33,119 nt of DNA from sequence record OR992646, one strand, 5' to 3'. The first letter of the stretch is position 1; each line of letters opens with the position of its first letter. A program made the translations under genes and the position numbers. The notes under the pieces are model-generated. The model was not told where the DNA came from, did no database searches, and was given only the letters and a program-made list of their open reading frames with translations. This stretch comes from Escherichia phage ET-SD-TH. Shown one piece after another: positions 1 through 27,017 of this stretch.

Positions 1-164
1 TCACCGGCCAGGTACGCATCGCGGAATTCTTCAACGTGCGCCTGGTCCACGTCACGGATGTTGTAGCCATCTTCCACATACAGTTCAGCCAGAGGCACCC
101 AAAACACCTTGCGCGGCTTTGCTTCGGTGGCACCTGCTTTATAGAGTTGTCCAATAGTAGCCAT
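1..164 (-). CDS. ParB-like nuclease domain protein, N-terminal fragment (gene runs off the window start)
   Basis: ATG at 164..162; translation MATIGQLYKAGATEAKPRKVFWVPLAELYVEDGYNIRDVDQAHVEEFRDAYLAG has the VP..EL....N.R spacing typical of the ParB N-terminal (ParBc) domain. Only 54 codons visible. Confidence 0.35.
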   Translation of the reverse strand, partial: MATIGQLYKAGATEAKPRKVFWVPLAELYVEDGYNIRDVDQAHVEEFRDAYLAG

Positions 165-239
165 TTACATAAATCCCAACACAAATGAAGTGATTAAAAA
201 TGAAGCCCATACAATAATGATGGGCAGATCACGTTTTTT

Positions 240-252
240 AACAATCATTGTT
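240..252. repeat. 13-bp palindrome AACAATCATTGTT (copy 1 of 3), overlapping the stop codon of the 236-aa gene and preceded by TTTTTT
   Basis: Exact sequence read at 240-252; reverse complement of the copies at 2465-2477 and 5581-5593. Confidence 0.45.
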
Positions 253-955
253 TACGATAACCTTTGCCAGAAATCCAAATTGCAATTTCTGTGGCAACAC
301 CAATGTCAAGACTGGTTTTTGTAGTGGCAGCAAAGTTAGCCAGTTCGTAAAGTATTTCATCACGCGCTTCACATTCATTTAGGTCGGCTTCTAACTGCTC
401 ATCGTTCAATATCGCAGTATCGCGAGGCACAACAATTCCTGCTGGTTGTACTTCGTGAGGATTAACAATGCGGTAAGAAATGATGTCACCGTCACTGCCA
501 GTATGTGACCATGCAAAATATTCTGCTCTGTCATTATTGATATGAAGCGGGCTAGGATTCCGGTATTTGACTTCAACAATTGCGTCACTATCCACAGGAC
601 ATTCACCGCCAGCCCATTCAATCCAGCCGTCAGCGTCGGCAGCAATTGCGGTTTTTCCTGCCCCTGTGTCAGCCGTGTAGTGTTCAGTTGAAACCTGGTA
701 CGGTCGCAGTTCTTTACTGGCTGCCAGCGCGGCTTCGTACTGGTCGCTGGTGATNNNNNNNNNNNNNNNNNNNNNNNNNNNNNNNNNNNNNNNNNNNNNN
801 NNNNNNNNNNNNNNNNNNNNNNNNNNNNNNNNNNNNNNNNNNNNNAGTTCACGGTCTGAATCTTGCGTAATAGCCTTCACTCCTTCCGGCCATCCGCCAC
901 GTTTCGGCAGTTCTTCAACCAGTATTTGCAGCAGGGTTTTATTTGATGTGTTCAT
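245..955 (-). CDS. hypothetical acidic protein (236 aa; 91 nt masked internally)
   Basis: Long minus-strand ORF immediately downstream of the tail D gene; protein-like composition; no motif I can recognise. Residues from 755-845 are unknown. Confidence 0.45.
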   Translation of the reverse strand: MNTSNKTLLQILVEELPKRGGWPEGVKAITQDSDREXXXXXXXXXXXXXXXXXXXXXXXXXXXXXXXITSDQYEAALAASKELRPYQVSTEHYTADTGAGKTAIAADADGWIEWAGGECPVDSDAIVEVKYRNPSPLHINNDRAEYFAWSHTGSDGDIISYRIVNPHEVQPAGIVVPRDTAILNDEQLEADLNECEARDEILYELANFAATTKTSLDIGVATEIAIWISGKGYRKQ

Positions 956-1049
956 GTGGGCATTACCTCGTTATTTATCCGGGCAGGTTATCCGCCCGTT
1001 CAAGGTAATGATATACGATGATGTAGAATGATTGCAACAATGTTTGTTG

Positions 1050-2204
1050 TTATTTTTCTTCGATGACATGGCCAGGGCCATCATCGCCTTCGTTAATGTC
1101 CTTTTCTTCGATCACGTGCCCTGGACCATCATCGTCAGGAGGGTCGCTTTCTTGCGGCTTCCTGCGCTCGATGATTTGCACCTTTGGTTCTTCTTCGCTG
1201 TTCGGCTTCGTTGCTTCCACGTCGCACGAATAACCGTTGTCATCCAGCCTGTGATCTGCGCGGGTAATCAGCCATTCGCCATCAATGCCATCACGGAACT
1301 CAACCAGCACCAGCTTGCATTCTGCGGCAATGGTAGGGTCACCGGGCAGCGTCACGGCAACAGTCACCTGGTTGCGCTGACGCTTCGACAGTTCGGCTTT
1401 GGCGGCGTCCAGCGCCATTGCCTGCGTTGGGTAGTATTTGCCAATCCGTTTGACCGGCTCCCCTTCGCCCACCTTCACTTCGTTGCGCGCTGCCTTCTTC
1501 GTCACCTGGTAGTAAGCCACCACCGTGCCTGCGTTTTCGCGCTTCTGGCTGGTTAGCCGGAATGCGGTGCAATCCTGCGCCGTCAGCGTTATGGTTGGCA
1601 GTTCTTCGCCGCTGGCCGTCTTACCTTCGCCGCGCTTCGTGACCGTGATTTTGCCGCCTGATGGTTTCACTACGCCGTCATATTTCTTGGCCAGTCGCAG
1701 CAACAGGTTCAGGTCAGATTCATCGGCCTGGTCAGTGTGGGGCAGGGTGATTTTGGCCATGCTTTCTGACACGGCTGATTCCATGCCGTGTTCTTCGGCA
1801 ATCTTCTTCACCATGTCGCCAAACTTCGTGCCTTTGGTCCAGCTACGTGATTTTTGCGTTTGCAGGTCGGTTTTGCCGCCCTTTGACTTGTCATAGGTGG
1901 CAGCTCTCGCCCTGATTGTCATGGTGCCTGGCCAGCCAGCCAGTTCCACTTCATCACAGATGAACAAGCCCATGCGCTGTGTCCAGTTATCATAACCCAG
2001 GAACAGTTCCAGTTCTGCGCCTGTTTCCGGCATCTGGATTGGGTTGGCCGGTTCATCATCGGCAAGGCTTATTTCCAGCGTGTCAGATTCCAGCCCTACG
2101 CCGTCAGACAGACTAAGGCTTATCAGGCGTTCATTGATTTTGGCGGTGATGTCATCGCCGTTGGCCAGCACGCGAAACGCTGGCGCAATCCCTGTTAATC
2201 CCAC
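1050..2204 (-). CDS. phage tail protein D (P2 gpD-like, late control D family)
   Basis: 384-aa ORF; N-terminus MGLTGIAPAFRVLANGDDITAKINERLISLSLSD matches the gpD family; sits after U and X as in P2-type tail modules; C-terminus carries a tandem DDGPGHVIEEK repeat. Confidence 0.85.
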   Translation of the reverse strand: MGLTGIAPAFRVLANGDDITAKINERLISLSLSDGVGLESDTLEISLADDEPANPIQMPETGAELELFLGYDNWTQRMGLFICDEVELAGWPGTMTIRARAATYDKSKGGKTDLQTQKSRSWTKGTKFGDMVKKIAEEHGMESAVSESMAKITLPHTDQADESDLNLLLRLAKKYDGVVKPSGGKITVTKRGEGKTASGEELPTITLTAQDCTAFRLTSQKRENAGTVVAYYQVTKKAARNEVKVGEGEPVKRIGKYYPTQAMALDAAKAELSKRQRNQVTVAVTLPGDPTIAAECKLVLVEFRDGIDGEWLITRADHRLDDNGYSCDVEATKPNSEEEPKVQIIERRKPQESDPPDDDGPGHVIEEKDINEGDDGPGHVIEEK

Positions 2205-2404
2205 AATTTCACCCCCTGCGTGGTCGCTGGCGTCGTGATTTCAGGCAGGTTGATGACCAGGCCAGCAGGCAGCACAGGTCCACGGTCTGCCAACCCTTTG
2301 TTGGCGTCCAGCAGTGCTTCCACGGTGCCAGCGTCCTGGTTTCCGTAGTATTTCCAGGCGATGTAATCCGCCGTGTCACCGTCTTTGGTAATGTAAGTTT
2401 GCAT
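2195..2404 (-). CDS. phage tail protein X (P2 gpX-like)
   Basis: 69-aa ORF MQTYITKDGDTADYIAWKYYGNQDAGTVEALLDANKGLADRGPVLPAG resembles P2 gpX; start overlaps the U stop, end overlaps the D start. Confidence 0.8.
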   Translation of the reverse strand: MQTYITKDGDTADYIAWKYYGNQDAGTVEALLDANKGLADRGPVLPAGLVINLPEITTPATTQGVKLWD

Positions 2405-2814
2405 CAGTTGAACCGCCGCAGTTGCAAATTGAATTCCTGTTTGCGCGGCGCACCGAACGCGGCAAACAATGATTGTTTTTCGTCAATGGCTTCAATCACC
2501 CAGCGGCCCCACAGCTTGCCCAGGCCGTCCACCAGCAACAGCGGCTGACCACGGCCAGCCATGCTGCGCATTTGCTCCACCTGCTGAAACCCGCCACGGT
2601 ATTCAGGGTAAATGATGCCAGCCAGGGTGATGGTTTCCTCTCCGATGCCCACGAATTGCGATGATGGTCGCTGGCCAAAGCGGTGCTGCGATGGCCACTT
2701 ATATTCGCTGTGGCGGTTCAGTTCCTGATATGCCGCAGTAAGGATGCAGAACTGGAAGCCGCCCAACATCATCATGATGTTGGTCTGCCCGGTTAAAATC
2801 GTGAAACTGGTCAT
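2404..2814 (-). CDS. phage tail protein U (P2 gpU-like)
   Basis: Contains MMMLGGFQF...SEYKWPSQHRFGQRPSSQFVG...LLLVDGLGKLWGRWVI...PRKQEFNLQLRRF, matching gpU; ATGA start/stop overlap with the tape measure gene (ATG 2814-2812, TGA 2813-2811) with GGAG upstream. An alternative start at the MMM run (2775) is possible. Confidence 0.8.
   Translation of the reverse strand: MTSFTILTGQTNIMMMLGGFQFCILTAAYQELNRHSEYKWPSQHRFGQRPSSQFVGIGEETITLAGIIYPEYRGGFQQVEQMRSMAGRGQPLLLVDGLGKLWGRWVIEAIDEKQSLFAAFGAPRKQEFNLQLRRFN
2465..2477. repeat. 13-bp palindrome AACAATGATTGTT (copy 2 of 3), inside the U coding region
   Basis: Exact sequence read at 2465-2477. Confidence 0.4.
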
Positions 2815-5150
2815 GGTGCCGTCACTCCGTCATTCATCATGCTGCGCTGCCGCACCTGGCGGCGGCGCTCCTGTTCGTCGGCAATACGTTTGGCCAGGTC
2901 TGTGGTGTTCTCACCAGGGCGCTGCACGATCTGCATCGTAGTTTGGCTGTTGTCCTGGTAGGTACTGCCTCCACGGTTAGCCAGTGCCGGTGCTGGCAAT
3001 GCGCTTGCTGGTGTCTGCGGTGTCGCCAGAGTGTTTCCTTCCGGCACGTCATCACCGCCGAACGGGTTTCTGAAAAAGTCTTTTGTTGACTCCCACGCGC
3101 TGCCAGCCATGTCAGAAACGCTGTTTTTGAAATCAATTGCTTTTTGCGTCAGTGCGCCAATGTTGTCAGAAACCCAAATGATCTTATCAATCAGGAACTG
3201 AATTGGCCCCAACACAAAATCAATGCCTGCGGCAAGCGCCTTGCCGAACTTCTGGCCAGCGTCACCGGCCTTTTTCAGTTCTTCGCTGCTGTAGCTCACC
3301 GGTTCTGCCAGTTTTGTGAACCAATCCCACACCTTACCAGCAACGTCAGCAACCCACTGGAACGCGGTTTTGACTGGTCCTAACTTATCCCACAGCGCCT
3401 GGAATTTCTCCGTTACTGGCTGCAACCCTTGCTGGATTCCCTGCAAAGTGCCGGTCATGAACGCTTTGACGCCAGCCCAATTGCGGTAAATCCACAGGCC
3501 GCCAAGCGCCAGTCCGGTAATCAGGGCACCAATGCCGGTGGAAATGAACGCCGCACCGATGGCGCGCACACCAGCGACAACGGCAGGGATTCCACGCGAT
3601 GCCATGCCCACTAGTCCGCCGTTGGCCACGGTAGCTGCGGCACCCACTGCACGCGAGGAAACCGCCGTCAGCGCCATCTGTGCGCGGGCACCAGCCAGGG
3701 CACCTACAACACGAAGCGCACCACCACGCAGGTACGTGAACGCGAAGCCAGCAGCAAACGTGGCAATGCGCATGGTAATCAGTGCGCCAGCCGTGGCTAC
3801 AATGGCTTTGGTGACAACCGGGTGCGCTTGCGCCAGTTCTGTAACCTTGCCAATCCACGGACTAATGGTTTTCAGGACGCTGTTGAATGCTGGAAGCAGC
3901 ACGCTGCCAATAGTGATACCAAGTGCGGTGATCTGGTTTCGGAATATTACCAGTTCGTTTGCCGTTGTTGCGGCCCGTGCCTGGTATTCTTTTTCCATAG
4001 AACCGGCATATTTCATTTTGTTCGCTACAGCGTCAAAATTCTTTTCCAGTTCCTTGATGTTCGTCAGCAATGGCGCAATTGAACCAACAACCTCTTTGCC
4101 AAAAAGCTGCGTCAGAACCGCTGACTGTTCGTGTTTCCGCAGTTTTGCAACCTGCTTGAGAATGACAAGCATGGTTTTTTTGGAGTCCCGTTGCATGGAT
4201 TTTGCAACTGCTGTTGAGGAATAGCCAAGCCGTGCGAATGCTTCTCGCTGCGATTTTGCTTTACCCGCCGTCAGTGACAGCATCAGGTTTTTGATACCAG
4301 TGGCGGCAATCTCGTTTTGCACACCCATGCCGCGCAGTGTCGCACCAAGTGCGGCAATTTCACCGGAAGCAGTACCGGCAACCTCGCCAAGTGGCCCGAT
4401 GCGCTGCACGATCTCCATGATGTCTTTGGCTGATGCGGCAGTGTTATTGCCCAGGTAGTTGATTTTGTCAGCCAGGGCGACAACCTGTTGCTGGTTCATC
4501 TTGAACGCAGAGCGCATCTCTGCCATCGCCTGGCCTGCCTGGTCGGCGGTGATGTCGAACGCCACGCCCATTTTGATGGCTGATTCCGCAAACGTCATCA
4601 GATCTTTGGCTGCAATGCCAGACTGACCACCAGCGGCAACGATCTTGCCAATGTCGTTGGCAGTCATCGGCAGAACTTTTGACATGTTGATAATGTCCTG
4701 CCCCATCTTTTTGAACCCGTCAGGCGTGTCGAAATCAACAACCTTTTTCACGTCAGCCATCGTTGATTCAAAATCAATCGCTGCTTTGACGGGTGCGGCA
4801 ATAGTGGCACCCAGGGCGATGGTGCCCATTATGCCGCTTTTGTATTCTTCGCGCTTATCAAGATTTCGCTGGCGTGCATCCTCCACACGTTTCAGGCGTT
4901 CGGTGGCGGTGCGAAGTTTGTCCACCGCAGCGACGTTTGCGGCATATTTGGCGCGCAGTGAATCAACGTTTTTGCCCTGGCGGCCAAACGTCTGTATGGC
5001 GTTGGTTAGCGTGCGTTGCTCGCGTTCCAGTTTGGCCATTGCCGAGCCAACCTGTTCCACAGATGATTTGACGGTGCCAAATGCGCCTTTAAGGCTGCTT
5101 GAAACTGCCCCGCCTATCGTGATCGTTGCATTGAGCTTCTTATTTGCCAT
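2811..5150 (-). CDS. phage tail tape measure protein (P2 gpT-like)
   Basis: 779-aa ORF rich in Ala/Gly with long helical segments and hydrophobic glycine-rich central stretches; positioned directly after the E/E' chaperone pair; ATG at 5150-5148. Confidence 0.85.
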   Translation of the reverse strand: MANKKLNATITIGGAVSSSLKGAFGTVKSSVEQVGSAMAKLEREQRTLTNAIQTFGRQGKNVDSLRAKYAANVAAVDKLRTATERLKRVEDARQRNLDKREEYKSGIMGTIALGATIAAPVKAAIDFESTMADVKKVVDFDTPDGFKKMGQDIINMSKVLPMTANDIGKIVAAGGQSGIAAKDLMTFAESAIKMGVAFDITADQAGQAMAEMRSAFKMNQQQVVALADKINYLGNNTAASAKDIMEIVQRIGPLGEVAGTASGEIAALGATLRGMGVQNEIAATGIKNLMLSLTAGKAKSQREAFARLGYSSTAVAKSMQRDSKKTMLVILKQVAKLRKHEQSAVLTQLFGKEVVGSIAPLLTNIKELEKNFDAVANKMKYAGSMEKEYQARAATTANELVIFRNQITALGITIGSVLLPAFNSVLKTISPWIGKVTELAQAHPVVTKAIVATAGALITMRIATFAAGFAFTYLRGGALRVVGALAGARAQMALTAVSSRAVGAAATVANGGLVGMASRGIPAVVAGVRAIGAAFISTGIGALITGLALGGLWIYRNWAGVKAFMTGTLQGIQQGLQPVTEKFQALWDKLGPVKTAFQWVADVAGKVWDWFTKLAEPVSYSSEELKKAGDAGQKFGKALAAGIDFVLGPIQFLIDKIIWVSDNIGALTQKAIDFKNSVSDMAGSAWESTKDFFRNPFGGDDVPEGNTLATPQTPASALPAPALANRGGSTYQDNSQTTMQIVQRPGENTTDLAKRIADEQERRRQVRQRSMMNDGVTAP

Positions 5151-5580: not shown

Positions 5581-5593
5581 AACAATGATTGTT
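5581..5593. repeat. 13-bp palindrome AACAATGATTGTT (copy 3 of 3), 15-28 nt upstream of the E start
   Basis: Exact sequence read at 5581-5593. Confidence 0.45.
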
Positions 5594-7673: not shown

Positions 7674-10600
7674 AAAGGCGACAAATCAGTAACNNNNNNN
7701 NNNNNNNNNNNNNNNNNNNNNNNNNNNNNNNNNNNNNNNNNNNNNNNNNNNNNNNNNNNNNNNNNNNNNNNNNNNNNNNNNNNNNNNNNNNNNNNNNNNN
7801 NNNNNNNNNNNNNNNNNNNNNNNNNNNNNNNNNNNNNNNNNNNNNNNNNNNNNNNNNNNNNNNNNNNNNNNNNNNNNNNNNNNNNNNNNNNNNNNNNNNN
7901 NNNNNNNNNNNNNNNNNNNNNNNNNNNNNNNNNNNNNNNNNNNNNNNNNNNNNNNNNNNNNNNNNNNNNNNNNNNNNNNNNNNNNNNNNNNNNNNNNNNN
8001 NNNNNNNNNNNNNNNNNNNNNNNNNNNNNNNNNNNNNNNNNNNNNNNNNNNNNNNNNNNNNNNNNNNNNNNNNNNNNNNNNNNNNNNNNNNNNNNNNNNN
8101 NNNNNNNNNNNNNNNNNNNNNNNNNNNNNNNNNNNNNNNNNNNNNNNNNNNNNNNNNNNNNNNNNNNNNNNNNNNNNNNNNNNNNNNNNNNNNNNNNNNN
8201 NNNNNNNNNNNNNNNNNNNNNNNNNNNNNNNNNNNNNNNNNNNNNNNNNNNNNNNNNNNNNNNNNNNNNNNNNNNNNNNNNNNNNNNNNNNNNNNNNNNN
8301 NNNNNNNNNNNNNNNNNNNNNNNNNNNNNNNNNNNNNNNNNNNNNNNNNNNNNNNNNNNNNNNNNNNNNNNNNNNNNNNNNNNNNNNNNNNNNNNNNNNN
8401 NNNNNNNNNNNNNNNNNNNNNNNNNNNNNNNNNNNNNNNNNNNNNNNNNNNNNNNNNNNNNNNNNNNNNNNNNNNNNNNNNNNNNNNNNNNNNNNNNNNN
8501 NNNNNNNNNNNNNNNNNNNNNNNNNNNNNNNNNNNNNNNNNNNNNNNNNNNNNNNNNNNNNNNNNNNNNNNNNNNNNNNNNNNNNNNNNNNNNNNNNNNN
8601 NNNNNNNNNNNNNNNNNNNNNNNNNNNNNNNNNNNNNNNNNNNNNNNNNNNNNNNNNNNNNNNNNNNNNNNNNNNNNNNNNNNNNNNNNNNNNNNNNNNN
8701 NNNNNNNNNNNNNNNNNNNNNNNNNNNNNNNNNNNNNNNNNNNNNNNNNNNNNNNNNNNNNNNNNNNNNNNNNNNNNNNNNNNNNNNNNNNNNNNNNNNN
8801 NNNNNNNNNNNNNNNNNNNNNNNNNNNNNNNNNNNNNNNNNNNNNNNNNNNNNNNNNNNNNNNNNNNNNNNNNNNNNNNNNNNNNNNNNNNNNNNNNNNN
8901 NNNNNNNNNNNNNNNNNNNNNNNNNNNNNNNNNNNNNNNNNNNNNNNNNNNNNNNNNNNNNNNNNNNNNNNNNNNNNNNNNNNNNNNNNNNNNNNNNNNN
9001 NNNNNNNNNNNNNNNNNNNNNNNNNNNNNNNNNNNNNNNNNNNNNNNNNNNNNNNNNNNNNNNNNNNNNNNNNNNNNNNNNNNNNNNNNNNNNNNNNNNN
9101 NNNNNNNNNNNNNNNNNNNNNNNNNNNNNNNNNNNNNNNNNNNNNNNNNNNNNNNNNNNNNNNNNNNNNNNNNNNNNNNNNNNNNNNNNNNNNNNNNNNN
9201 NNNNNNNNNNNNNNNNNNNNNNNNNNNNNNNNNNNNNNNNNNNNNNNNNNNNNNNNNNNNNNNNNNNNNNNNNNNNNNNNNNNNNNNNNNNNNNNNNNNN
9301 NNNNNNNNNNNNNNNNNNNNNNNNNNNNNNNNNNNNNNNNNNNNNNNNNNNNNNNNNNNNNNNNNNNNNNNNNNNNNNNNNNNNNNNNNNNNNNNNNNNN
9401 NNNNNNNNNNNNNNNNNNNNNNNNNNNNNNNNNNNNNNNNNNNNNNNNNNNNNNNNNNNNNNNNNNNNNNNNNNNNNNNNNNNNNNNNNNNNNNNNNNNN
9501 NNNNNNNNNNNNNNNNNNNNNNNNNNNNNNNNNNNNNNNNNNNNNNNNNNNNNNNNNNNNNNNNNNNNNNNNNNNNNNNNNNNNNNNNNNNNNNNNNNNN
9601 NNNNNNNNNNNNNNNNNNNNNNNNNNNNNNNNNNNNNNNNNNNNNNNNNNNNNNNNNNNNNNNNNNNNNNNNNNNNNNNNNNNNNNNNNNNNNNNNNNNN
9701 NNNNNNNNNNNNNNNNNNNNNNNNNNNNNNNNNNNNNNNNNNNNNNNNNNNNNNNNNNNNNNNNNNNNNNNNNNNNNNNNNNNNNNNNNNNNNNNNNNNN
9801 NNNNNNNNNNNNNNNNNNNNNNNNNNNNNNNNNNNNNNNNNNNNNNNNNNNNNNNNNNNNNNNNNNNNNNNNNNNNNNNNNNNNNNNNNNNNNNNNNNNN
9901 NNNNNNNNNNNNNNNNNNNNNNNNNNNNNNNNNNNNNNNNNNNNNNNNNNNNNNNNNNNNNNNNNNNNNNNNNNNNNNNNNNNNNNNNNNNNNNNNNNNN
10001 NNNNNNNNNNNNNNNNNNNNNNNNNNNNNNNNNNNNNNNNNNNNNNNNNNNNNNNNNNNNNNNNNNNNNNNNNNNNNNNNNNNNNNNNNNNNNNNNNNNN
10101 NNNNNNNNNNNNNNNNNNNNNNNNNNNNNNNNNNNNNNNNNNNNNNNNNNNNNNNNNNNNNNNNNNNNNNNNNNNNNNNNNNNNNNNNNNNNNNNNNNNN
10201 NNNNNNNNNNNNNNNNNNNNNNNNNNNNNNNNNNNNNNNNNNNNNNNNNNNNNNNNNNNNNNNNNNNNNNNNNNNNNNNNNNNNNNNNNNNNNNNNNNNN
10301 NNNNNNNNNNNNNNNNNNNNNNNNNNNNNNNNNNNNNNNNNNNNNNNNNNNNNNNNNNNNNNNNNNNNNNNNNNNNNNNNNNNNNNNNNNNNNNNNNNNN
10401 NNNNNNNNNNNNNNNNNNNNNNNNNNNNNNNNNNNNNNNNNNNNNNNNNNNNNNNNNNNNNNNNNNNNNNNNNNNNNNNNNNNNNNNNNNNNNNNNNNNN
10501 NNNNNNNNNNNNNNNNNNNNNNNNNNNNNNNNNNNNNNNNNNNNNNNNNNNNNNNNNNNNNNNNNNNNNNNNNNNNNNNNNNNNNNNNNNNNNNNNNNNN

Positions 10601-12750
10601 NNNNNNNNNNNNNNNNNNNNNNNNNNNNNNNNNNNNNNNNNNNNNNNNNNNNNNNNNNNNNNNNNNNNNNNNNNNNNNNNNNNNNNNNNNNNNNNNNNNN
10701 NNNNNNNNNNNNNNNNNNNNNNNNNNNNNNNNNNNNNNNNNNNNNNNNNNNNNNNNNNNNNNNNNNNNNNNNNNNNNNNNNNNNNNNNNNNNNNNNNNNN
10801 NNNNNNNNNNNNNNNNNNNNNNNNNNNNNNNNNNNNNNNNNNNNNNNNNNNNNNNNNNNNNNNNNNNNNNNNNNNNNNNNNNNNNNNNNNNNNNNNNNNN
10901 NNNNNNNNNNNNNNNNNNNNNNNNNNNNNNNNNNNNNNNNNNNNNNNNNNNNNNNNNNNNNNNNNNNNNNNNNNNNNNNNNNNNNNNNNNNNNNNNNNNN
11001 NNNNNNNNNNNNNNNNNNNNNNNNNNNNNNNNNNNNNNNNNNNNNNNNNNNNNNNNNNNNNNNNNNNNNNNNNNNNNNNNNNNNNNNNNNNNNNNNNNNN
11101 NNNNNNNNNNNNNNNNNNNNNNNNNNNNNNNNNNNNNNNNNNNNNNNNNNNNNNNNNNNNNNNNNNNNNNNNNNNNNNNNNNNNNNNNNNNNNNNNNNNN
11201 NNNNNNNNNNNNNNNNNNNNNNNNNNNNNNNNNNNNNNNNNNNNNNNNNNNNNNNNNNNNNNNNNNNNNNNNNNNNNNNNNNNNNNNNNNNNNNNNNNNN
11301 NNNNNNNNNNNNNNNNNNNNNNNNNNNNNNNNNNNNNNNNNNNNNNNNNNNNNNNNNNNNNNNNNNNNNNNNNNNNNNNNNNNNNNNNNNNNNNNNNNNN
11401 NNNNNNNNNNNNNNNNNNNNNNNNNNNNNNNNNNNNNNNNNNNNNNNNNNNNNNNNNNNNNNNNNNNNNNNNNNNNNNNNNNNNNNNNNNNNNNNNNNNN
11501 NNNNNNNNNNNNNNNNNNNNNNNNNNNNNNNNNNNNNNNNNNNNNNNNNNNNNNNNNNNNNNNNNNNNNNNNNNNNNNNNNNNNNNNNNNNNNNNNNNNN
11601 NNNNNNNNNNNNNNNNNNNNNNNNNNNNNNNNNNNNNNNNNNNNNNNNNNNNNNNNNNNNNNNNNNNNNNNNNNNNNNNNNNNNNNNNNNNNNNNNNNNN
11701 NNNNNNNNNNNNNNNNNNNNNNNNNNNNNNNNNNNNNNNNNNNNNNNNNNNNNNNNNNNNNNNNNNNNNNNNNNNNNNNNNNNNNNNNNNNNNNNNNNNN
11801 NNNNNNNNNNNNNNNNNNNNNNNNNNNNNNNNNNNNNNNNNNNNNNNNNNNNNNNNNNNNNNNNNNNNNNNNNNNNNNNNNNNNNNNNNNNNNNNNNNNN
11901 NNNNNNNNNNNNNNNNNNNNNNNNNNNNNNNNNNNNNNNNNNNNNNNNNNNNNNNNNNNNNNNNNNNNNNNNNNNNNNNNNNNNNNNNNNNNNNNNNNNN
12001 NNNNNNNNNNNNNNNNNNNNNNNNNNNNNNNNNNNNNNNNNNNNNNNNNNNNNNNNNNNNNNNNNNNNNNNNNNNNNNNNNNNNNNNNNNNNNNNNNNNN
12101 NNNNNNNNNNNNNNNNNNNNNNNNNNNNNNNNNNNNNNNNNNNNNNNNNNNNNNNNNNNNNNNNNNNNNNNNNNNNNNNNNNNNNNNNNNNNNNNNNNNN
12201 NNNNNNNNNNNNNNNNNNNNNNNNNNNNNNNNNNNNNNNNNNNNNNNNNNNNNNNNNNNNNNNNNNNNNNNNNNNNNNNNNNNNNNNNNNNNNNNNNNNN
12301 NNNNNNNNNNNNNNNNNNNNNNNNNNNNNNNNNNNNNNNNNNNNNNNNNNNNNNNNNNNNNNNNNNNNNNNNNNNNNNNNNNNNNNNNNNNNNNNNNNNN
12401 NNNNNNNNNNNNNNNNNNNNNNNNNNNNNNNNNNNNNNNNNNNNNNNNNNNNNNNNNNNNNNNNNNNNNNNNNNNNNNNNNNNNNNNNNNNNNNNNNNNN
12501 NNNNNNNNNNNNNNNNNNNNNNNNNNNNNNNNNNNNNNNNNNNNNNNNNNNNNNNNNNNNNNNNNNNNNNNNNNNNNNNNNNNNNNNNNNNNNNNNNNNN
12601 NNNNNNNNNNNNNNNNNNNNNNNNNNNNNNNNNNNNNNNNNNNNNNNNNNNNNNNNNNNNNNNNNNNNNNNNNNNNNNNNNNNNNNNNNNNNNNNNNNNN
12701 NNNNNNNNNNNNNNNNNNNNNNNNNNNNNNNNNNNNNNNNNNNNNNNNNN

Positions 12751-12947: not shown

Positions 12948-15900
12948 NNNNNNNNNNNNNNNNNNNNNNNNNNNNNNNNNNNNNNNNNNNNNNNNNNNNN
13001 NNNNNNNNNNNNNNNNNNNNNNNNNNNNNNNNNNNNNNNNNNNNNNNNNNNNNNNNNNNNNNNNNNNNNNNNNNNNNNNNNNNNNNNNNNNNNNNNNNNN
13101 NNNNNNNNNNNNNNNNNNNNNNNNNNNNNNNNNNNNNNNNNNNNNNNNNNNNNNNNNNNNNNNNNNNNNNNNNNNNNNNNNNNNNNNNNNNNNNNNNNNN
13201 NNNNNNNNNNNNNNNNNNNNNNNNNNNNNNNNNNNNNNNNNNNNNNNNNNNNNNNNNNNNNNNNNNNNNNNNNNNNNNNNNNNNNNNNNNNNNNNNNNNN
13301 NNNNNNNNNNNNNNNNNNNNNNNNNNNNNNNNNNNNNNNNNNNNNNNNNNNNNNNNNNNNNNNNNNNNNNNNNNNNNNNNNNNNNNNNNNNNNNNNNNNN
13401 NNNNNNNNNNNNNNNNNNNNNNNNNNNNNNNNNNNNNNNNNNNNNNNNNNNNNNNNNNNNNNNNNNNNNNNNNNNNNNNNNNNNNNNNNNNNNNNNNNNN
13501 NNNNNNNNNNNNNNNNNNNNNNNNNNNNNNNNNNNNNNNNNNNNNNNNNNNNNNNNNNNNNNNNNNNNNNNNNNNNNNNNNNNNNNNNNNNNNNNNNNNN
13601 NNNNNNNNNNNNNNNNNNNNNNNNNNNNNNNNNNNNNNNNNNNNNNNNNNNNNNNNNNNNNNNNNNNNNNNNNNNNNNNNNNNNNNNNNNNNNNNNNNNN
13701 NNNNNNNNNNNNNNNNNNNNNNNNNNNNNNNNNNNNNNNNNNNNNNNNNNNNNNNNNNNNNNNNNNNNNNNNNNNNNNNNNNNNNNNNNNNNNNNNNNNN
13801 NNNNNNNNNNNNNNNNNNNNNNNNNNNNNNNNNNNNNNNNNNNNNNNNNNNNNNNNNNNNNNNNNNNNNNNNNNNNNNNNNNNNNNNNNNNNNNNNNNNN
13901 NNNNNNNNNNNNNNNNNNNNNNNNNNNNNNNNNNNNNNNNNNNNNNNNNNNNNNNNNNNNNNNNNNNNNNNNNNNNNNNNNNNNNNNNNNNNNNNNNNNN
14001 NNNNNNNNNNNNNNNNNNNNNNNNNNNNNNNNNNNNNNNNNNNNNNNNNNNNNNNNNNNNNNNNNNNNNNNNNNNNNNNNNNNNNNNNNNNNNNNNNNNN
14101 NNNNNNNNNNNNNNNNNNNNNNNNNNNNNNNNNNNNNNNNNNNNNNNNNNNNNNNNNNNNNNNNNNNNNNNNNNNNNNNNNNNNNNNNNNNNNNNNNNNN
14201 NNNNNNNNNNNNNNNNNNNNNNNNNNNNNNNNNNNNNNNNNNNNNNNNNNNNNNNNNNNNNNNNNNNNNNNNNNNNNNNNNNNNNNNNNNNNNNNNNNNN
14301 NNNNNNNNNNNNNNNNNNNNNNNNNNNNNNNNNNNNNNNNNNNNNNNNNNNNNNNNNNNNNNNNNNNNNNNNNNNNNNNNNNNNNNNNNNNNNNNNNNNN
14401 NNNNNNNNNNNNNNNNNNNNNNNNNNNNNNNNNNNNNNNNNNNNNNNNNNNNNNNNNNNNNNNNNNNNNNNNNNNNNNNNNNNNNNNNNNNNNNNNNNNN
14501 NNNNNNNNNNNNNNNNNNNNNNNNNNNNNNNNNNNNNNNNNNNNNNNNNNNNNNNNNNNNNNNNNNNNNNNNNNNNNNNNNNNNNNNNNNNNNNNNNNNN
14601 NNNNNNNNNNNNNNNNNNNNNNNNNNNNNNNNNNNNNNNNNNNNNNNNNNNNNNNNNNNNNNNNNNNNNNNNNNNNNNNNNNNNNNNNNNNNNNNNNNNN
14701 NNNNNNNNNNNNNNNNNNNNNNNNNNNNNNNNNNNNNNNNNNNNNNNNNNNNNNNNNNNNNNNNNNNNNNNNNNNNNNNNNNNNNNNNNNNNNNNNNNNN
14801 NNNNNNNNNNNNNNNNNNNNNNNNNNNNNNNNNNNNNNNNNNNNNNNNNNNNNNNNNNNNNNNNNNNNNNNNNNNNNNNNNNNNNNNNNNNNNNNNNNNN
14901 NNNNNNNNNNNNNNNNNNNNNNNNNNNNNNNNNNNNNNNNNNNNNNNNNNNNNNNNNNNNNNNNNNNNNNNNNNNNNNNNNNNNNNNNNNNNNNNNNNNN
15001 NNNNNNNNNNNNNNNNNNNNNNNNNNNNNNNNNNNNNNNNNNNNNNNNNNNNNNNNNNNNNNNNNNNNNNNNNNNNNNNNNNNNNNNNNNNNNNNNNNNN
15101 NNNNNNNNNNNNNNNNNNNNNNNNNNNNNNNNNNNNNNNNNNNNNNNNNNNNNNNNNNNNNNNNNNNNNNNNNNNNNNNNNNNNNNNNNNNNNNNNNNNN
15201 NNNNNNNNNNNNNNNNNNNNNNNNNNNNNNNNNNNNNNNNNNNNNNNNNNNNNNNNNNNNNNNNNNNNNNNNNNNNNNNNNNNNNNNNNNNNNNNNNNNN
15301 NNNNNNNNNNNNNNNNNNNNNNNNNNNNNNNNNNNNNNNNNNNNNNNNNNNNNNNNNNNNNNNNNNNNNNNNNNNNNNNNNNNNNNNNNNNNNNNNNNNN
15401 NNNNNNNNNNNNNNNNNNNNNNNNNNNNNNNNNNNNNNNNNNNNNNNNNNNNNNNNNNNNNNNNNNNNNNNNNNNNNNNNNNNNNNNNNNNNNNNNNNNN
15501 NNNNNNNNNNNNNNNNNNNNNNNNNNNNNNNNNNNNNNNNNNNNNNNNNNNNNNNNNNNNNNNNNNNNNNNNNNNNNNNNNNNNNNNNNNNNNNNNNNNN
15601 NNNNNNNNNNNNNNNNNNNNNNNNNNNNNNNNNNNNNNNNNNNNNNNNNNNNNNNNNNNNNNNNNNNNNNNNNNNNNNNNNNNNNNNNNNNNNNNNNNNN
15701 NNNNNNNNNNNNNNNNNNNNNNNNNNNNNNNNNNNNNNNNNNNNNNNNNNNNNNNNNNNNNNNNNNNNNNNNNNNNNNNNNNNNNNNNNNNNNNNNNNNN
15801 NNNNNNNNNNNNNNNNNNNNNNNNNNNNNNNNNNNNNNNNNNNNNNNNNNNNNNNNNNNNNNNNNNNNNNNNNNNNNNNNNNNNNNNNNNNNNNNNNNNN

Positions 15901-18793
15901 NNNNNNNNNNNNNNNNNNNNNNNNNNNNNNNNNNNNNNNNNNNNNNNNNNNNNNNNNNNNNNNNNNNNNNNNNNNNNNNNNNNNNNNNNNNNNNNNNNNN
16001 NNNNNNNNNNNNNNNNNNNNNNNNNNNNNNNNNNNNNNNNNNNNNNNNNNNNNNNNNNNNNNNNNNNNNNNNNNNNNNNNNNNNNNNNNNNNNNNNNNNN
16101 NNNNNNNNNNNNNNNNNNNNNNNNNNNNNNNNNNNNNNNNNNNNNNNNNNNNNNNNNNNNNNNNNNNNNNNNNNNNNNNNNNNNNNNNNNNNNNNNNNNN
16201 NNNNNNNNNNNNNNNNNNNNNNNNNNNNNNNNNNNNNNNNNNNNNNNNNNNNNNNNNNNNNNNNNNNNNNNNNNNNNNNNNNNNNNNNNNNNNNNNNNNN
16301 NNNNNNNNNNNNNNNNNNNNNNNNNNNNNNNNNNNNNNNNNNNNNNNNNNNNNNNNNNNNNNNNNNNNNNNNNNNNNNNNNNNNNNNNNNNNNNNNNNNN
16401 NNNNNNNNNNNNNNNNNNNNNNNNNNNNNNNNNNNNNNNNNNNNNNNNNNNNNNNNNNNNNNNNNNNNNNNNNNNNNNNNNNNNNNNNNNNNNNNNNNNN
16501 NNNNNNNNNNNNNNNNNNNNNNNNNNNNNNNNNNNNNNNNNNNNNNNNNNNNNNNNNNNNNNNNNNNNNNNNNNNNNNNNNNNNNNNNNNNNNNNNNNNN
16601 NNNNNNNNNNNNNNNNNNNNNNNNNNNNNNNNNNNNNNNNNNNNNNNNNNNNNNNNNNNNNNNNNNNNNNNNNNNNNNNNNNNNNNNNNNNNNNNNNNNN
16701 NNNNNNNNNNNNNNNNNNNNNNNNNNNNNNNNNNNNNNNNNNNNNNNNNNNNNNNNNNNNNNNNNNNNNNNNNNNNNNNNNNNNNNNNNNNNNNNNNNNN
16801 NNNNNNNNNNNNNNNNNNNNNNNNNNNNNNNNNNNNNNNNNNNNNNNNNNNNNNNNNNNNNNNNNNNNNNNNNNNNNNNNNNNNNNNNNNNNNNNNNNNN
16901 NNNNNNNNNNNNNNNNNNNNNNNNNNNNNNNNNNNNNNNNNNNNNNNNNNNNNNNNNNNNNNNNNNNNNNNNNNNNNNNNNNNNNNNNNNNNNNNNNNNN
17001 NNNNNNNNNNNNNNNNNNNNNNNNNNNNNNNNNNNNNNNNNNNNNNNNNNNNNNNNNNNNNNNNNNNNNNNNNNNNNNNNNNNNNNNNNNNNNNNNNNNN
17101 NNNNNNNNNNNNNNNNNNNNNNNNNNNNNNNNNNNNNNNNNNNNNNNNNNNNNNNNNNNNNNNNNNNNNNNNNNNNNNNNNNNNNNNNNNNNNNNNNNNN
17201 NNNNNNNNNNNNNNNNNNNNNNNNNNNNNNNNNNNNNNNNNNNNNNNNNNNNNNNNNNNNNNNNNNNNNNNNNNNNNNNNNNNNNNNNNNNNNNNNNNNN
17301 NNNNNNNNNNNNNNNNNNNNNNNNNNNNNNNNNNNNNNNNNNNNNNNNNNNNNNNNNNNNNNNNNNNNNNNNNNNNNNNNNNNNNNNNNNNNNNNNNNNN
17401 NNNNNNNNNNNNNNNNNNNNNNNNNNNNNNNNNNNNNNNNNNNNNNNNNNNNNNNNNNNNNNNNNNNNNNNNNNNNNNNNNNNNNNNNNNNNNNNNNNNN
17501 NNNNNNNNNNNNNNNNNNNNNNNNNNNNNNNNNNNNNNNNNNNNNNNNNNNNNNNNNNNNNNNNNNNNNNNNNNNNNNNNNNNNNNNNNNNNNNNNNNNN
17601 NNNNNNNNNNNNNNNNNNNNNNNNNNNNNNNNNNNNNNNNNNNNNNNNNNNNNNNNNNNNNNNNNNNNNNNNNNNNNNNNNNNNNNNNNNNNNNNNNNNN
17701 NNNNNNNNNNNNNNNNNNNNNNNNNNNNNNNNNNNNNNNNNNNNNNNNNNNNNNNNNNNNNNNNNNNNNNNNNNNNNNNNNNNNNNNNNNNNNNNNNNNN
17801 NNNNNNNNNNNNNNNNNNNNNNNNNNNNNNNNNNNNNNNNNNNNNNNNNNNNNNNNNNNNNNNNNNNNNNNNNNNNNNNNNNNNNNNNNNNNNNNNNNNN
17901 NNNNNNNNNNNNNNNNNNNNNNNNNNNNNNNNNNNNNNNNNNNNNNNNNNNNNNNNNNNNNNNNNNNNNNNNNNNNNNNNNNNNNNNNNNNNNNNNNNNN
18001 NNNNNNNNNNNNNNNNNNNNNNNNNNNNNNNNNNNNNNNNNNNNNNNNNNNNNNNNNNNNNNNNNNNNNNNNNNNNNNNNNNNNNNNNNNNNNNNNNNNN
18101 NNNNNNNNNNNNNNNNNNNNNNNNNNNNNNNNNNNNNNNNNNNNNNNNNNNNNNNNNNNNNNNNNNNNNNNNNNNNNNNNNNNNNNNNNNNNNNNNNNNN
18201 NNNNNNNNNNNNNNNNNNNNNNNNNNNNNNNNNNNNNNNNNNNNNNNNNNNNNNNNNNNNNNNNNNNNNNNNNNNNNNNNNNNNNNNNNNNNNNNNNNNN
18301 NNNNNNNNNNNNNNNNNNNNNNNNNNNNNNNNNNNNNNNNNNNNNNNNNNNNNNNNNNNNNNNNNNNNNNNNNNNNNNNNNNNNNNNNNNNNNNNNNNNN
18401 NNNNNNNNNNNNNNNNNNNNNNNNNNNNNNNNNNNNNNNNNNNNNNNNNNNNNNNNNNNNNNNNNNNNNNNNNNNNNNNNNNNNNNNNNNNNNNNNNNNN
18501 NNNNNNNNNNNNNNNNNNNNNNNNNNNNNNNNNNNNNNNNNNNNNNNNNNNNNNNNNNNNNNNNNNNNNNNNNNNNNNNNNNNNNNNNNNNNNNNNNNNN
18601 NNNNNNNNNNNNNNNNNNNNNNNNNNNNNNNNNNNNNNNNNNNNNNNNNNNNNNNNNNNNNNNNNNNNNNNNNNNNNNNNNNNNNNNNNNNNNNNNNNNN
18701 NNNNNNNNNNNNNNNNNNNNNNNNNNNNNNNNNNNNNNNNNNNNNNNNNNNNNNNNNNNNNNNNNNNNNNNNNNNNNNNNNNNNNNNNNNNNN

Positions 18794-23404: not shown

Positions 23405-24064
23405 TTAATGTCGCCTTATCTAATGCTAAAATCAATTTTGATTATCCACGCACAACGCGAATNNNNNNNNNNNNNNNNNNNNNNNNNNNNNNNNNNNNNN
23501 NNNNNNNNNNNNNNNNNNNNNNNNNNNNNNNNNNNNNNNNNNNNNNNNNNNNNNNNNNNNNNNNNNNNNNNNNNNNNNNNNNNNNNNNNNNNNNNNNNNN
23601 NNNNNNNNNNNNNNNNNNNNNNNNNNNNNNNNNNNNNNNNNNNNNNNNNNNNNNNNNNNNNNNNNNNNNNNNNNNNNNNNNNNNNNNNNNNNNNNNNNNN
23701 NNNNNNNNNNNNNNNNNNNNNNNNNNNNNNNNNNNNNNNNNNNNNNNNNNNNNNNNNNNNNNNNNNNNNNNNNNNNNNNNNNNNNNNNNNNNNNNNNNNN
23801 NNNNNNNNNNNNNNNNNNNNNNNNNNNNNNNNNNNNNNNNNNNNNNNNNNNNNNNNNNNNNNNNNNNNNNNNNNNNNNNNNNNNNNNNNNNNNNNNNNNN
23901 NNNNNNNNNNNNNNNNNNNNNNNNNNNNNNNNNNNNNNNNNNNNNNNNNNNNNNNNNNNNNNNNNNNNNNNNNNNNNNNNNNNNNNNNNNNNNNNNNNNN
24001 NNNNNNNNNNNNNNNNNNNNNNNNNNNNNNNNNNNNNNNNNNNNNNNNNNNNNNNNNNNNNNNN

Positions 24065-26273: not shown

Positions 26274-27017
26274 NNNNNNNNNNNNNNNNNNNNNNNNNNN
26301 NNNNNNNNNNNNNNNNNNNNNNNNNNNNNNNNNNNNNNNNNNNNNNNNNNNNNNNNNNNNNNNNNNNNNNNNNNNNNNNNNNNNNNNNNNNNNNNNNNNN
26401 NNNNNNNNNNNNNNNNNNNNNNNNNNNNNNNNNNNNNNNNNNNNNNNNNNNNNNNNNNNNNNNNNNNNNNNNNNNNNNNNNNNNNNNNNNNNNNNNNNNN
26501 NNNNNNNNNNNNNNNNNNNNNNNNNNNNNNNNNNNNNNNNNNNNNNNNNNNNNNNNNNNNNNNNNNNNNNNNNNNNNNNNNNNNNNNNNNNNNNNNNNNN
26601 NNNNNNNNNNNNNNNNNNNNNNNNNNNNNNNNNNNNNNNNNNNNNNNNNNNNNNNNNNNNNNNNNNNNNNNNNNNNNNNNNNNNNNNNNNNNNNNNNNNN
26701 NNNNNNNNNNNNNNNNNNNNNNNNNNNNNNNNNNNNNNNNNNNNNNNNNNNNNNNNNNNNNNNNNNNNNNNNNNNNNNNNNNNNNNNNNNNNNNNNNNNN
26801 NNNNNNNNNNNNNNNNNNNNNNNNNNNNNNNNNNNNNNNNNNNNNNNNNNNNNNNNNNNNNNNNNNNNNNNNNNNNNNNNNNNNNNNNNNNNNNNNNNNN
26901 NNNNNNNNNNNNNNNNNNNNNNNNNNNNNNNNNNNNNNNNNNNNNNNNNNNNNNNNNNNNNNNNNNNNNNNNNNNNNNNNNNNNNNNNNNNNNNNNNNNN
27001 NNNNNNNNNNNNNNNNN

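Follow-up and report, generated by a model that had tools for sequence, protein, structure and literature searches.

The gene that follows the tail operon of Escherichia phage ET-SD-TH (sequence record OR992646) encodes an acidic protein of 236 residues, p236, and is best explained as a moron-like cassette for a non-structural host-interaction protein, located beside an orphan ParB-like regulator of the KorB/Noc type. The probability of this explanation is put at about 0.45, somewhat less than even. The protein would bind a variable target protein of the host or of a competitor and act as a counter-defence or host-takeover adaptor. Its variable N-terminal and β modules would recognize the target, and its conserved hairpin would dock or oligomerize. 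This mode of action is proposed from the evolutionary pattern and the gene context, because no characterized family or solved fold matches p236. The window, i.e. the whole stretch of DNA analyzed, is 33,119 nucleotides long.

The window is about 93 - 94% identical at the nucleotide level to Escherichia phage vB_EcoM_ECO1230-10, a Jilinvirus, and the locus is ordinary in the sense that databases already contain other alleles of its genes, from ECO1230-10 and its relatives. Every gene described here is carried by the minus strand, at the coordinates given in Table 1. The preliminary description reported a tail operon ending in D, followed by an acidic open reading frame of 236 residues and the start of a ParB-like gene truncated by the window edge; this layout and its coordinates were confirmed. 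GpX (PF05489) and gpU (PF06995) precede gpD, which is 96 - 99% identical in six Escherichia and Salmonella relatives and 80% identical in Enterobacter phage Arya. The start-stop mini-ORF on the minus strand that abuts the ParB-like gene is kept in the six aligned Escherichia and Salmonella relatives, and the Arya row of the alignment ends before this site. Scans of bases 1 - 2300 for tandem and inverted repeats returned only the palindromes of Table 1. A megablast search with bases 1 - 1060 gave no match in complete E. coli genomes, so no close prophage copy is present there. Bases 755 - 845, within the N-terminal domain of p236, are masked as N, and 31 residues are consequently missing from the window's own p236.

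Table 1. Features of the locus downstream of gpD (positions within the window)
Feature	Position	Strand	Remarks
gpD	2204..1050	-	Last tail/baseplate-hub gene; marks the locus boundary; Pfam Phage_GPD PF05954, 47.4 bits
Palindrome AACAA-N3-TTGTT, second copy	1036..1048		Just past the gpD stop codon; overlaps the -35 element
Sigma-70-like promoter candidate TTGCAA-18-TATCAT	1008..1037	-	Ahead of p236; 9/12 in consensus scan
Predicted structured leader	961..1010	-	Stem 1010..1001 / 970..961 buries the GAGG ribosome-binding site; GC hairpin cap 998..980
p236 (236-residue acidic ORF)	955..245	-	ATG start; orthologue of ECO1230-10 gp06; three modules
N-terminal α/β domain, p236 residues 1-81	713..955	-	Conserved cap LPKxGGWP..QD.D and hypervariable insert
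Central β domain of p236, ~60 residues, GWIxWxGGECPV...W.H...DIIAYR	455..643	-	
C-terminal helical hairpin, p236 residues ~193-236	248..379	-	Best-conserved part of p236; ends GYRKQ
Palindrome AACAA-N3-TTGTT	240..252		Overlaps the p236 stop codon; 76 bp upstream of the ParB-like ATG
Terminator-like hairpin GCCCAT-N9-ATGGGC (225..205), then UUCAUUUUU (204..196)	196..225	-	Downstream of p236
ATG-TAA start-stop mini-ORF	165..170		Abuts the ParB-like start codon; read straight from the sequence
ParB-like gene, first 54 codons	164..1	-	Cut by the window edge; orphan; full-length orthologues have 291 residues

The genes beyond gpD form an accessory locus at the scale of the family, as had been proposed. 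A tRNA-Arg and an integrase come immediately after gpD in Pseudomonas phage Persinger. In Xanthomonas phage FoX2, three tiny ORFs and a tRNA occupy this place, and the ParB-like gene belongs instead to the early operon. The block is thus absent after gpD in both phages. In Jilinviruses, p236 and the ParB-like gene are followed by small genes, two to four in number and typically of ~103 and 70 - 89 residues; this genus-specific block is inserted between gpD and the tRNA-Arg/integrase junction, where the latter is present. Both p236 and the ParB-like gene are present in all 10 Jilinvirus genomes examined. As to whether the locus is a variable hotspot among relatives, the variation lies in its alleles and not in its gene content: there is no presence/absence variation within the genus.

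The base composition sets p236 apart from the genes on either side. Its GC content is 47% (40% at third codon positions, GC3), compared to 55% (61%) for gpD and 59% (68%) for the ParB-like gene, the GC content of which is at or above that of its neighbors. The idea of cargo, raised for both genes in the preliminary description, suits p236 in view of its low GC3, its predicted promoter and terminator, and its mosaic hypervariability. It does not suit the ParB-like gene, which is 95 - 97% identical across the six Escherichia and Salmonella relatives.

Several predicted control signals surround p236. The hexamers of the promoter candidate are kept in relatives, although its score of 9/12 is not significant by itself, the scan having found one site versus 1.7 expected by chance. 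The leader RNA has a predicted folding energy of -23.3 kcal/mol (z = -5.1; none of 200 shuffled sequences folds as well), and both strands of its stem are invariant in eight phages, whereas the loop is variable. Transcription starting about 7 nt past the -10 element, near position 1001, would omit the anti-Shine-Dalgarno strand. Translation of p236 would then depend on its own promoter and not on late tail mRNA, since the ribosome-binding site would be buried in transcripts that read through. The terminator-like hairpin (RNA fold of -16 kcal/mol, z = -3.3) has a stem that is kept in all relatives; the consensus scan missed it because the loop has 9 nt.

These signals bear on whether p236 might be a structural protein made late, or one that assists tail assembly, such as a chaperone. 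It comes right after gpD in the same orientation, which would suit such a role. The idea is nevertheless highly improbable, given the predicted promoter, leader and terminator of its own, the expected burial of its ribosome-binding site on read-through RNA and a base composition atypical of the tail operon. Furthermore, sister genera share the tail module but lack p236, and its homologs in other phages are found outside the tail modules, in clusters of small or early genes. Neither a role in tail-fiber assembly nor any other structural role emerged for the locus.

In line with the first reading of this DNA, p236, with or without the ParB-like gene, could be cargo that is expressed in the lysogen and protects the host, by defence or by superinfection exclusion. 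The moron-like architecture adjoining the tRNA-Arg/integrase junction and the sigma-70-type promoter candidate are both consistent with this proposal, and bona fide prophages of the Jilinvirus group exist (PMC11990801). The temperate setting assumed for it was not borne out: Jilinviruses behave as virulent phages, and the integrase is intact in only some of them (PMC11990801). Moreover, p236 is kept in Jilinviruses that plate as virulent and have a lost or decayed integrase (PMC11990801), and many phages isolated as lytic have homologs of it, located in small-gene or early clusters adjoining lysis genes or the gene for the single-stranded DNA-binding protein (SSB). A PADLOC search returned no matches for p236, the ParB-like protein or two of the small downstream proteins, which argues against defence genes at this site. 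Overall, expression as protective cargo of a lysogen is quite unlikely.

That p236 is a real gene follows from its match to phrog_26870 (E-value of 1e-103) and from its 1,378 database homologs. The protein was described earlier as acidic and of an unmatched family, and both statements stand. Its pI is 4.5, with 35 Asp and Glu residues versus 18 Lys and Arg residues among the 206 readable ones, and it has no match in Pfam, NCBIfam or PADLOC. A Foldseek comparison of p236 with the Protein Data Bank gave nothing at E <1, a profile search of the PDB sequences gave no match, and p236 has no nucleotide-binding motif. The low pI of the entire family (~4.5 - 4.9) recalls the acidic DNA mimics that counteract restriction, of the Ocr/ArdA type. 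Such an identity for p236 is extremely improbable, since neither its sequence nor its fold is similar to any solved structure, and since HeidiAbel (Bas97), which carries a p236 orthologue, is very sensitive to restriction-modification systems (PMC11990801). The latter property implies that p236 is not an effective general anti-restriction factor.

The hypervariability of p236 speaks for a role in host interaction. The amino acid identity of p236 among relatives is 56 - 69%, making the gene the diversity hotspot of the region, and the nucleotide identity drops to 0.23 - 0.55 only inside the p236 ORF, including the part that encodes the N-terminal domain. The dN/dS ratio is 0.27 - 0.67 for p236, compared to 0.00 - 0.15 for the tail genes and 0.04 - 0.21 for the ParB-like gene. 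In the same genome pairs, the dN of p236 exceeds that of gpD by a factor of 7 - 40, whereas its dS is 0.6 - 6 times that of gpD, with a difference of at most threefold in six of the seven pairs. Some alleles differ in domain content: that of phage ep3 is without the N-terminal domain, and that of PT1 has a different hairpin. As the gene-wide dN/dS of p236 does not reach 1, this diversity could have arisen from relaxed constraint together with recombination, without an arms race.

The three modules of p236 differ in their conservation. In the model of an orthologue, the N-terminal domain has pLDDT values of 74 - 89, and its hypervariable columns are seen in the alignment. The C-terminal hairpin is modeled as two helices, residues 193 - 211 and 217 - 229, with a pLDDT of ~80. 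It is ~90% identical even in Arya, and other alleles carry alternative types of hairpin. Two possible origins of the flanking modules were rejected. The hairpin is not a decayed DUF3310 domain (hhalign probability of 0.2%), and the N-terminal domain is not a divergent copy of the β repeat, as the β profile matched the window only once. DUF3310 itself (PF11753) has no Pfam match in p236, and its HPxHY motif is absent from the readable window.

The central β domain has neither a Pfam family nor a structural relative, but it is abundant, matching 7,271 protein clusters (clustered at 50% identity), and is frequently found as tandem copies. Cluster look-ups named its relatives 'hypothetical protein' or gave no name, and the phage annotations are almost all 'hypothetical'. 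Among 148 representatives, the domain co-occurs with DUF3310 in eight, with PF18909 in five, with DUF6378 in four and with PF04447 in one; about 12% of them carry such enzyme domains. DUF3310 is the T7 gp1.7 nucleotide-kinase/SaV domain; SaV, a toxic early protein of a lactococcal phage, is linked to AbiV sensitivity (PMC10700055, PMC8306868). PF18909 and PF04447 are dNTP pyrophosphohydrolases (PMC12884076). In Skate-like siphoviruses the p236 homolog lies within small accessory gene clusters. In a group of phage contigs of roughly 27 - 39 kb the homolog is immediately upstream of the SSB gene, and DUF3310 is present there as a fused domain or as a separate gene that comes next. These DUF3310-associated relatives keep the N-terminal and β-domain backbone of p236 with 56 - 63% identity.

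The latter arrangement, in which the p236 backbone is fused to or followed by DUF3310 and abuts SSB in another group of phages, suggests that p236 could be an accessory subunit or adaptor of nucleotide-pool or replication functions, perhaps regulating or localizing a kinase, a pyrophosphohydrolase or SSB, rather than a host-interaction or counter-defence protein. The co-occurrence of the β domain with three kinds of nucleotide-pool enzyme domains points in the same direction (PMC10700055, PMC12884076). However, the readable window has no DUF3310-type motif, the C terminus of p236 is unrelated to DUF3310, and the enzyme domains are found only in the small fraction of β-domain representatives given above. 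A housekeeping role is also not expected to go along with evolution that is ~20 times faster than that of the neighboring genes, or with loss of the N-terminal domain. A nucleotide-pool function is thus rather unlikely, though not negligible, compared to the preferred assignment of p236 to host interaction. On a broader and quite speculative view, the β domain may mark a large unrecognized superfamily of phage adaptors, which would recognize variable host targets and carry exchangeable effectors at the C-terminus, among them helical hairpins, dNTP pyrophosphohydrolases and a nucleotide kinase. In this doubtful scheme, p236 would be a member that has no effector and diversifies rapidly, serves in counter-defence or as a decoy, and is controlled by a KorB-like phage ParB.

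The second gene of the locus was examined largely by means of its full-length orthologues, because the 54 residues encoded in the window have no domain match on their own. This fragment is 91 - 98% identical to the starts of the 291-residue ParB-like proteins in the six Escherichia and Salmonella relatives and 50% identical to that in Arya; for the full-length proteins the values are 95 - 97% and 62%, respectively. The orthologue matches phrog_1033 and contains an HTH_ParB domain (PF17762, 48.7 bits versus a cut-off of 22.6), and residues 1 - 54 lie upstream of this domain. It aligns to the structures of Spo0J, Noc and KorB. A phmmer search aligned residues 41 - 175 of the orthologue to Spo0J/ParB structures with an E-value of 1e-10 (residues 44 - 174 of Spo0J), and the TIGR00180 score, 46.8 bits, is under the cut-off of 58.45. 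The protein had been called a ParB-nuclease-domain protein. This name derives solely from the Spo0J alignment, for PF02195, the ParB-like nuclease domain, was not detected in the full-length orthologue even at E-values up to 5. Nor does the protein resemble the ParB-like proteins of DNA modification or defence with which it had been compared, as it has a plain ParB architecture with no methyltransferase or nuclease fusion (PMC12704722).

The CTP-binding boxes of the ParB-like orthologue, as defined by the motifs GERRxRA (box II) and ENLQR (box III) (PMC12704722), are degenerate when compared to those of Spo0J: GERRYRA is replaced by GHHRFAG and ENLQRE by SSQGKP. Clamp-type behavior of the protein is uncertain because the canonical residues of both boxes are missing. 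The ParB-like protein, which belongs to the genus core, is most likely similar to KorB or Noc and would function without ParA as a site-specific DNA-binding regulator or clamp. Candidate binding sites are provided by the 13-bp palindromes that flank p236, and another phage protein with a helix-turn-helix is equally compatible with them. Perfect copies of the palindrome are found five times in the window versus 0.03 expected, and seven times in the ECO1230-10 genome, and their positions are conserved across the genus.

Dispersed palindromes could also serve as centromere-like sites, in which case the ParB-like protein would be a true partition protein for a plasmid-prophage state, with p236 or the small downstream genes supplying its partner. 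The ParB-type architecture and the lifestyle of the genus, which has been called enigmatic (PMC11990801), agree with this possibility. However, neither ParA nor any other NTPase is present in the block of any relative examined, and the 103-residue block protein matches no family, despite its annotation as 'ATPase'. The LG(R/K)GL motif, which binds ParA, is absent from the N-terminus of the ParB-like protein, and the potential partner p236 is devoid of a nucleotide-binding motif, as stated above. In addition, close homologs of the ParB-like protein occur in virulent siphoviruses, far from the p236-like genes of those phages. A partition function is therefore very unlikely, and a KorB/Noc-like regulator is preferred.

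The significance of p236 is that it diversifies amid genes that are 95 - 98% identical in the closest relatives, and that it is built on an abundant, undescribed domain that repeatedly partners nucleotide-pool enzymes. Screens of phage-host conflict would have in it a cheap and well defined candidate, for example with the BASEL phage HeidiAbel. The orphan ParB-like protein and the dispersed 13-bp palindrome give a testable handle on the gene regulation and lifestyle of Jilinviruses.

The closest known counterparts of p236 are gp06 of ECO1230-10, a 'conserved phage protein' of phrog_26870, and its Jilinvirus orthologues, which correspond to p236 in both position and architecture. Gp06 is 83% identical to p236 over the 205 readable aligned residues; the two are distinct alleles of a hypervariable gene, and no member of the phrog_26870 family has an assigned function. 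With the DUF3310 proteins p236 is connected through close relatives that carry DUF3310 as a C-terminal module or as the next gene and that, like SaV, are located in early gene clusters; p236 itself is without the DUF3310 domain.

The morons of lambdoid and P2-like phages have their own promoter and terminator and are inserted between conserved genes. Similarly, p236 is found where the conserved tail operon ends, and it shares with them the deviant GC content and the absence from sister genera, and is predicted to have a promoter and terminator of its own. Unlike morons, it is fixed throughout the genus, with allelic variation rather than presence or absence, and most members of the genus behave as virulent phages. 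The ParB-like protein differs from ParB/Spo0J in that GERR of box II is GHHR and ENLQR of box III is SSQGK, and in that it has neither a ParA partner nor the ParA-binding motif. Nevertheless, its orthologue has the build of ParB/Spo0J, Noc and KorB, with HTH_ParB placed between a ParB-type N-terminal domain and a C-terminal region, and, like KorB, the protein could make use of short palindromes near promoters.

The tail module of phage ET-SD-TH is followed by an accessory, moron-like and hypervariable gene, p236, which adjoins a conserved orphan ParB-like gene; this description has good support. The window, 33,119 bp long, is collinear with positions ~2840-35966 of the Jilinvirus vB_EcoM_ECO1230-10 (ECO1230-10), a member of the Iiscvirinae, at a nucleotide identity of ~93-94%. 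In the full ECO1230-10 genome a single strand carries almost every gene of the stretch that runs from the helicase, by way of the early, lysis and head genes, to the tail, and the two genes are the far end of this array, past the last tail gene. That p236, standing directly behind the tail genes, is itself a structural protein is unlikely. Six runs of N (755-845, 7694-12750, 12948-18793, 23463-24064, 26274-27017 and 27233-27949) mask ~13 kb of the window and yield very long artefactual ORFs in its ORF list. The first run falls within the p236 ORF and hides 31 codons of its hypervariable part.

Features of the p236 locus and of the p236 protein (window positions unless stated otherwise)
Feature	Position	Strand	Remark
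Tape-measure gene	5150..2811	(-)	
gpU	2814..2404	(-)	Pfam-confirmed
gpX	2404..2195	(-)	Pfam-confirmed
gpD	2204..1050	(-)	Pfam-confirmed
p236, 236 aa	955..245	(-)	ORF directly after gpD
ParB-like ORF, incomplete	start at 164	(-)	exits window edge
Palindrome AACAA-N3-TTGTT, all window copies	240-252, 1036-1048, 2465-2477, 5581-5593, 22820-22832		
Further palindrome copies, ECO1230-10 (L016)	12537-12549, 40470-40482		
Spacer palindrome	1036-1048		overlaps gpD stop codon and -35 of promoter candidate
Sigma-70-like promoter candidate, TTGCAA-18-TATCAT	spacer 5' of p236		score 9/12, not significant alone
GC hairpin	spacer upstream of p236		
Leader structure	961-1010	(-)	outer stem, -23.3 kcal/mol, z = -5.1; conserved
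N-terminal alpha/beta domain	residues 1-81		pLDDT 74-89
Disordered linker	between N-terminal and beta domains		
Small beta domain	residues ~106-165		
Disordered acidic linker	between beta domain and hairpin		
Helical hairpin	residues 193-229		

The preliminary description placed two genes beyond gpD, one for an acidic 236-residue protein and the cut-off start of a ParB-like gene, and the ORFs and their homologues bear this out. p236 is a real gene because it matches phrog_26870 (unknown function) with an E-value of 1e-103 and has 1,378 homologues in the database search; it has no match in Pfam, NCBIfam or PADLOC. Its pI, computed over 206 readable residues, is 4.5. A DNA mimic is unlikely: phage HeidiAbel (Bas97), one of the carriers of a p236 orthologue, shows high sensitivity to restriction-modification (PMC11990801). 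The 54-residue ParB-like fragment taken alone gives no domain match; six Escherichia/Salmonella relatives encode 291-aa proteins whose N-termini match it at 91-98% identity, and in the distant Enterobacter phage Arya the figure is 50%. HTH_ParB scores 48.7 bits in the full-length relatives, and their residues 41-175 align to the structures of Spo0J, Noc and KorB. The former label 'ParB-nuclease-domain' thus holds for the ParB kinship, but PF02195 was not detected. Database entries already exist for both genes, namely ECO1230-10 gp05 and gp06 and orthologues, annotated as ParB-like and hypothetical. New here are the demonstration that p236 is a local diversity hotspot, the cassette-like control elements around it, and the very abundant undescribed domain on which it is built.

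All 10 Jilinvirus genomes or contigs examined have the order gpD, p236, ParB-like gene and 2-4 small genes, typically of ~103 and 70-89 aa. Those that contain the junction continue with a tRNA-Arg, an integrase (intact in some genomes only) and the converging SSB and replication genes. Pseudomonas phage Persinger, with the same tail module, has tRNA-Arg and integrase directly after gpD; Xanthomonas phage FoX2 has three tiny ORFs and a tRNA there, and its early operon holds a distant ParB-like gene (~30% identity). These arrangements identify the p236/ParB-like block, at the level of gene order, as a genus-specific insertion at the gpD-tRNA/integrase junction. The gene content of the block is fixed inside the genus. 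The nearest relatives of both proteins outside the genus (~50% identity each) belong to one group of enterobacterial and Vibrio siphoviruses of 45-48 kb, among them Klebsiella phage VLCpiS13d (L003) and Salmonella phage Skate (L004). The two genes lie ~10 kb apart in this group, which suggests that a common gene pool donated them. The 103-aa protein downstream of the ParB-like gene (ECO1230-10 gp04, L001 1820-2131) is annotated 'putative ATPase'; Pfam, NCBIfam and PADLOC give this no support, and its sole match is phrog_2529, of unknown function. It too is variable, with 48-56% identity between relatives, yet 95% in the Jilinvirus ep3.

The diversity is concentrated in p236. Compared with ECO1230-10, the six Escherichia/Salmonella relatives retain 96-98% amino-acid identity in gpD and 95-97% in the ParB-like protein; p236 retains 56-69% across the columns that align, and indels are numerous in it. 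Mean pairwise nucleotide identity among 11 genomes is 0.84-0.93 in the spacer and gpD, leaving out one indel-rich stretch close to the 3' end of gpD, then 0.23-0.55 within p236, and returns to 0.72-0.83 at its 3' end and past it. Between the window and ECO1230-10, dS is similar in p236 and gpD (0.23 vs 0.18), whereas dN is 0.101 vs 0.006. Over seven genome pairs dN/dS is 0.27-0.67 for p236, 0.00-0.15 for gpU, gpX and gpD, and 0.04-0.21 for the ParB-like gene. In several pairs dS is raised too, which indicates that recombination has also imported divergent segments. The ep3 allele (159 aa) is without the N-terminal domain, PT1 and several metagenomic alleles have C-terminal hairpins of another kind, and when the homologues are clustered at 90% identity, almost all clusters consist of one to a few sequences. 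The C-terminus of gpD (window ~1050-1140, minus strand) carries an acidic peptide, DDGPGHVIEEK, in two copies; this tail, with a nucleotide identity of 0.36, is the sole poorly conserved part of gpD, whose length differs between relatives (333, 368 or 384 aa).

The AlphaFold model of the p236 orthologue (mean pLDDT 70.5) comprises five segments, and searches with the whole model gave no meaningful match. The small beta domain is covered by no Pfam family; a search of 1.84 billion proteins with its profile yields, at E up to 0.001, 7,271 representative clusters. In the best 148 of the 7,271 representatives it occurs in 1-4 tandem copies, together with DUF3310 (8), PF18909 (5), DUF6378 (4) and PF04447 (1). 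DUF3310 has been linked to nucleotide-kinase activity in T7 gp1.7 (PMC10700055) and is likewise the domain of lactococcal SaV, an early protein that is toxic and governs AbiV sensitivity (PMC8306868); both PF18909 and PF04447 are domains of dATP/dGTP pyrophosphohydrolases (PMC12884076). In p236 relatives the C-terminal module behind a conserved junction motif, DLN(D/E)CIGQ, comes in three versions, namely a GYRKQ-type hairpin, DUF3310, and a further beta domain with a hairpin. A p236-like gene abuts SSB in one group of phage contigs of roughly 27-39 kb (L014 4001-5226, L015 4001-5624), with DUF3310 either fused to it or encoded by a separate 74-aa gene between the two. By sequence, this fusion/fission pair ties the p236 family to DUF3310. 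The p236 hairpin was considered as a DUF3310 relative and rejected, the two being unrelated; the readable part of the window has no DUF3310 motif.

In the main rival reading p236 plays an accessory part in nucleotide functions or in replication. We favour a non-structural host-interaction protein, a putative counter-defence or host-takeover adaptor, because of the diversification pattern, the modular swapping, and the kinship and adjacency with early proteins of the SaV/gp1.7 type. A defence gene, as proposed earlier, or a superinfection-exclusion gene is possible; the proposal found no positive support, PADLOC included, and fits poorly with the retention of p236 in virulent phages.

p236 differs in composition from its neighbors, with GC/GC3 of 47%/40% vs 55/61% in gpD and 59/68% in the ParB-like gene. 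The 94-bp spacer upstream is ~90% conserved even in Arya. The outer stem of the leader pairs the GAGG ribosome-binding site of p236 with sequence right after the -10 element, and this anti-SD strand overlaps with the predicted start of transcription. RNA begun ~7 nt past the -10 element would be free of that strand, so that the translational block would hit only transcripts that read through from the tail operon: these would leave p236 untranslated, and RNA from its own promoter would be translatable. The p236 stop codon is immediately followed by another palindrome copy and by a hairpin (z = -3.3) that resembles a terminator and ends in a U-rich tail. A start-stop mini-ORF, ATG-TAA (165-170, minus strand), lies immediately 5' of the ParB-like ATG and may act in translational coupling or control; it is conserved in the six Escherichia/Salmonella relatives whose alignment covers it.

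The ParB-like orthologue has a ParB-type N-terminal domain, HTH_ParB and an acidic C-terminal region. Box II reads GHHR, not GERR, and box III SSQGK, not ENLQR (motifs as defined in PMC12704722), and the score is under the TIGR00180 cut-off. Since neither a ParA gene nor a ParA-binding motif accompanies it, the protein is, on sequence criteria, a divergent orphan of the kind surveyed in PMC12704722; p236 as its partition partner is unlikely. The 13-bp palindrome is strongly over-represented: the window has 5 copies where 0.03 would be expected, and ECO1230-10 has 7, all perfect. The copies keep their positions across Jilinviruses, some intergenic and just 5' of genes, others within coding regions. 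Two copies bracket p236, 81 bp upstream of its start and 76 bp upstream of the ParB-like start. The palindrome may be an operator or a parS-like site, assignable to the ParB-like protein or to another phage regulator, and its arrangement is similar to the dispersed 13-bp operators of KorB.
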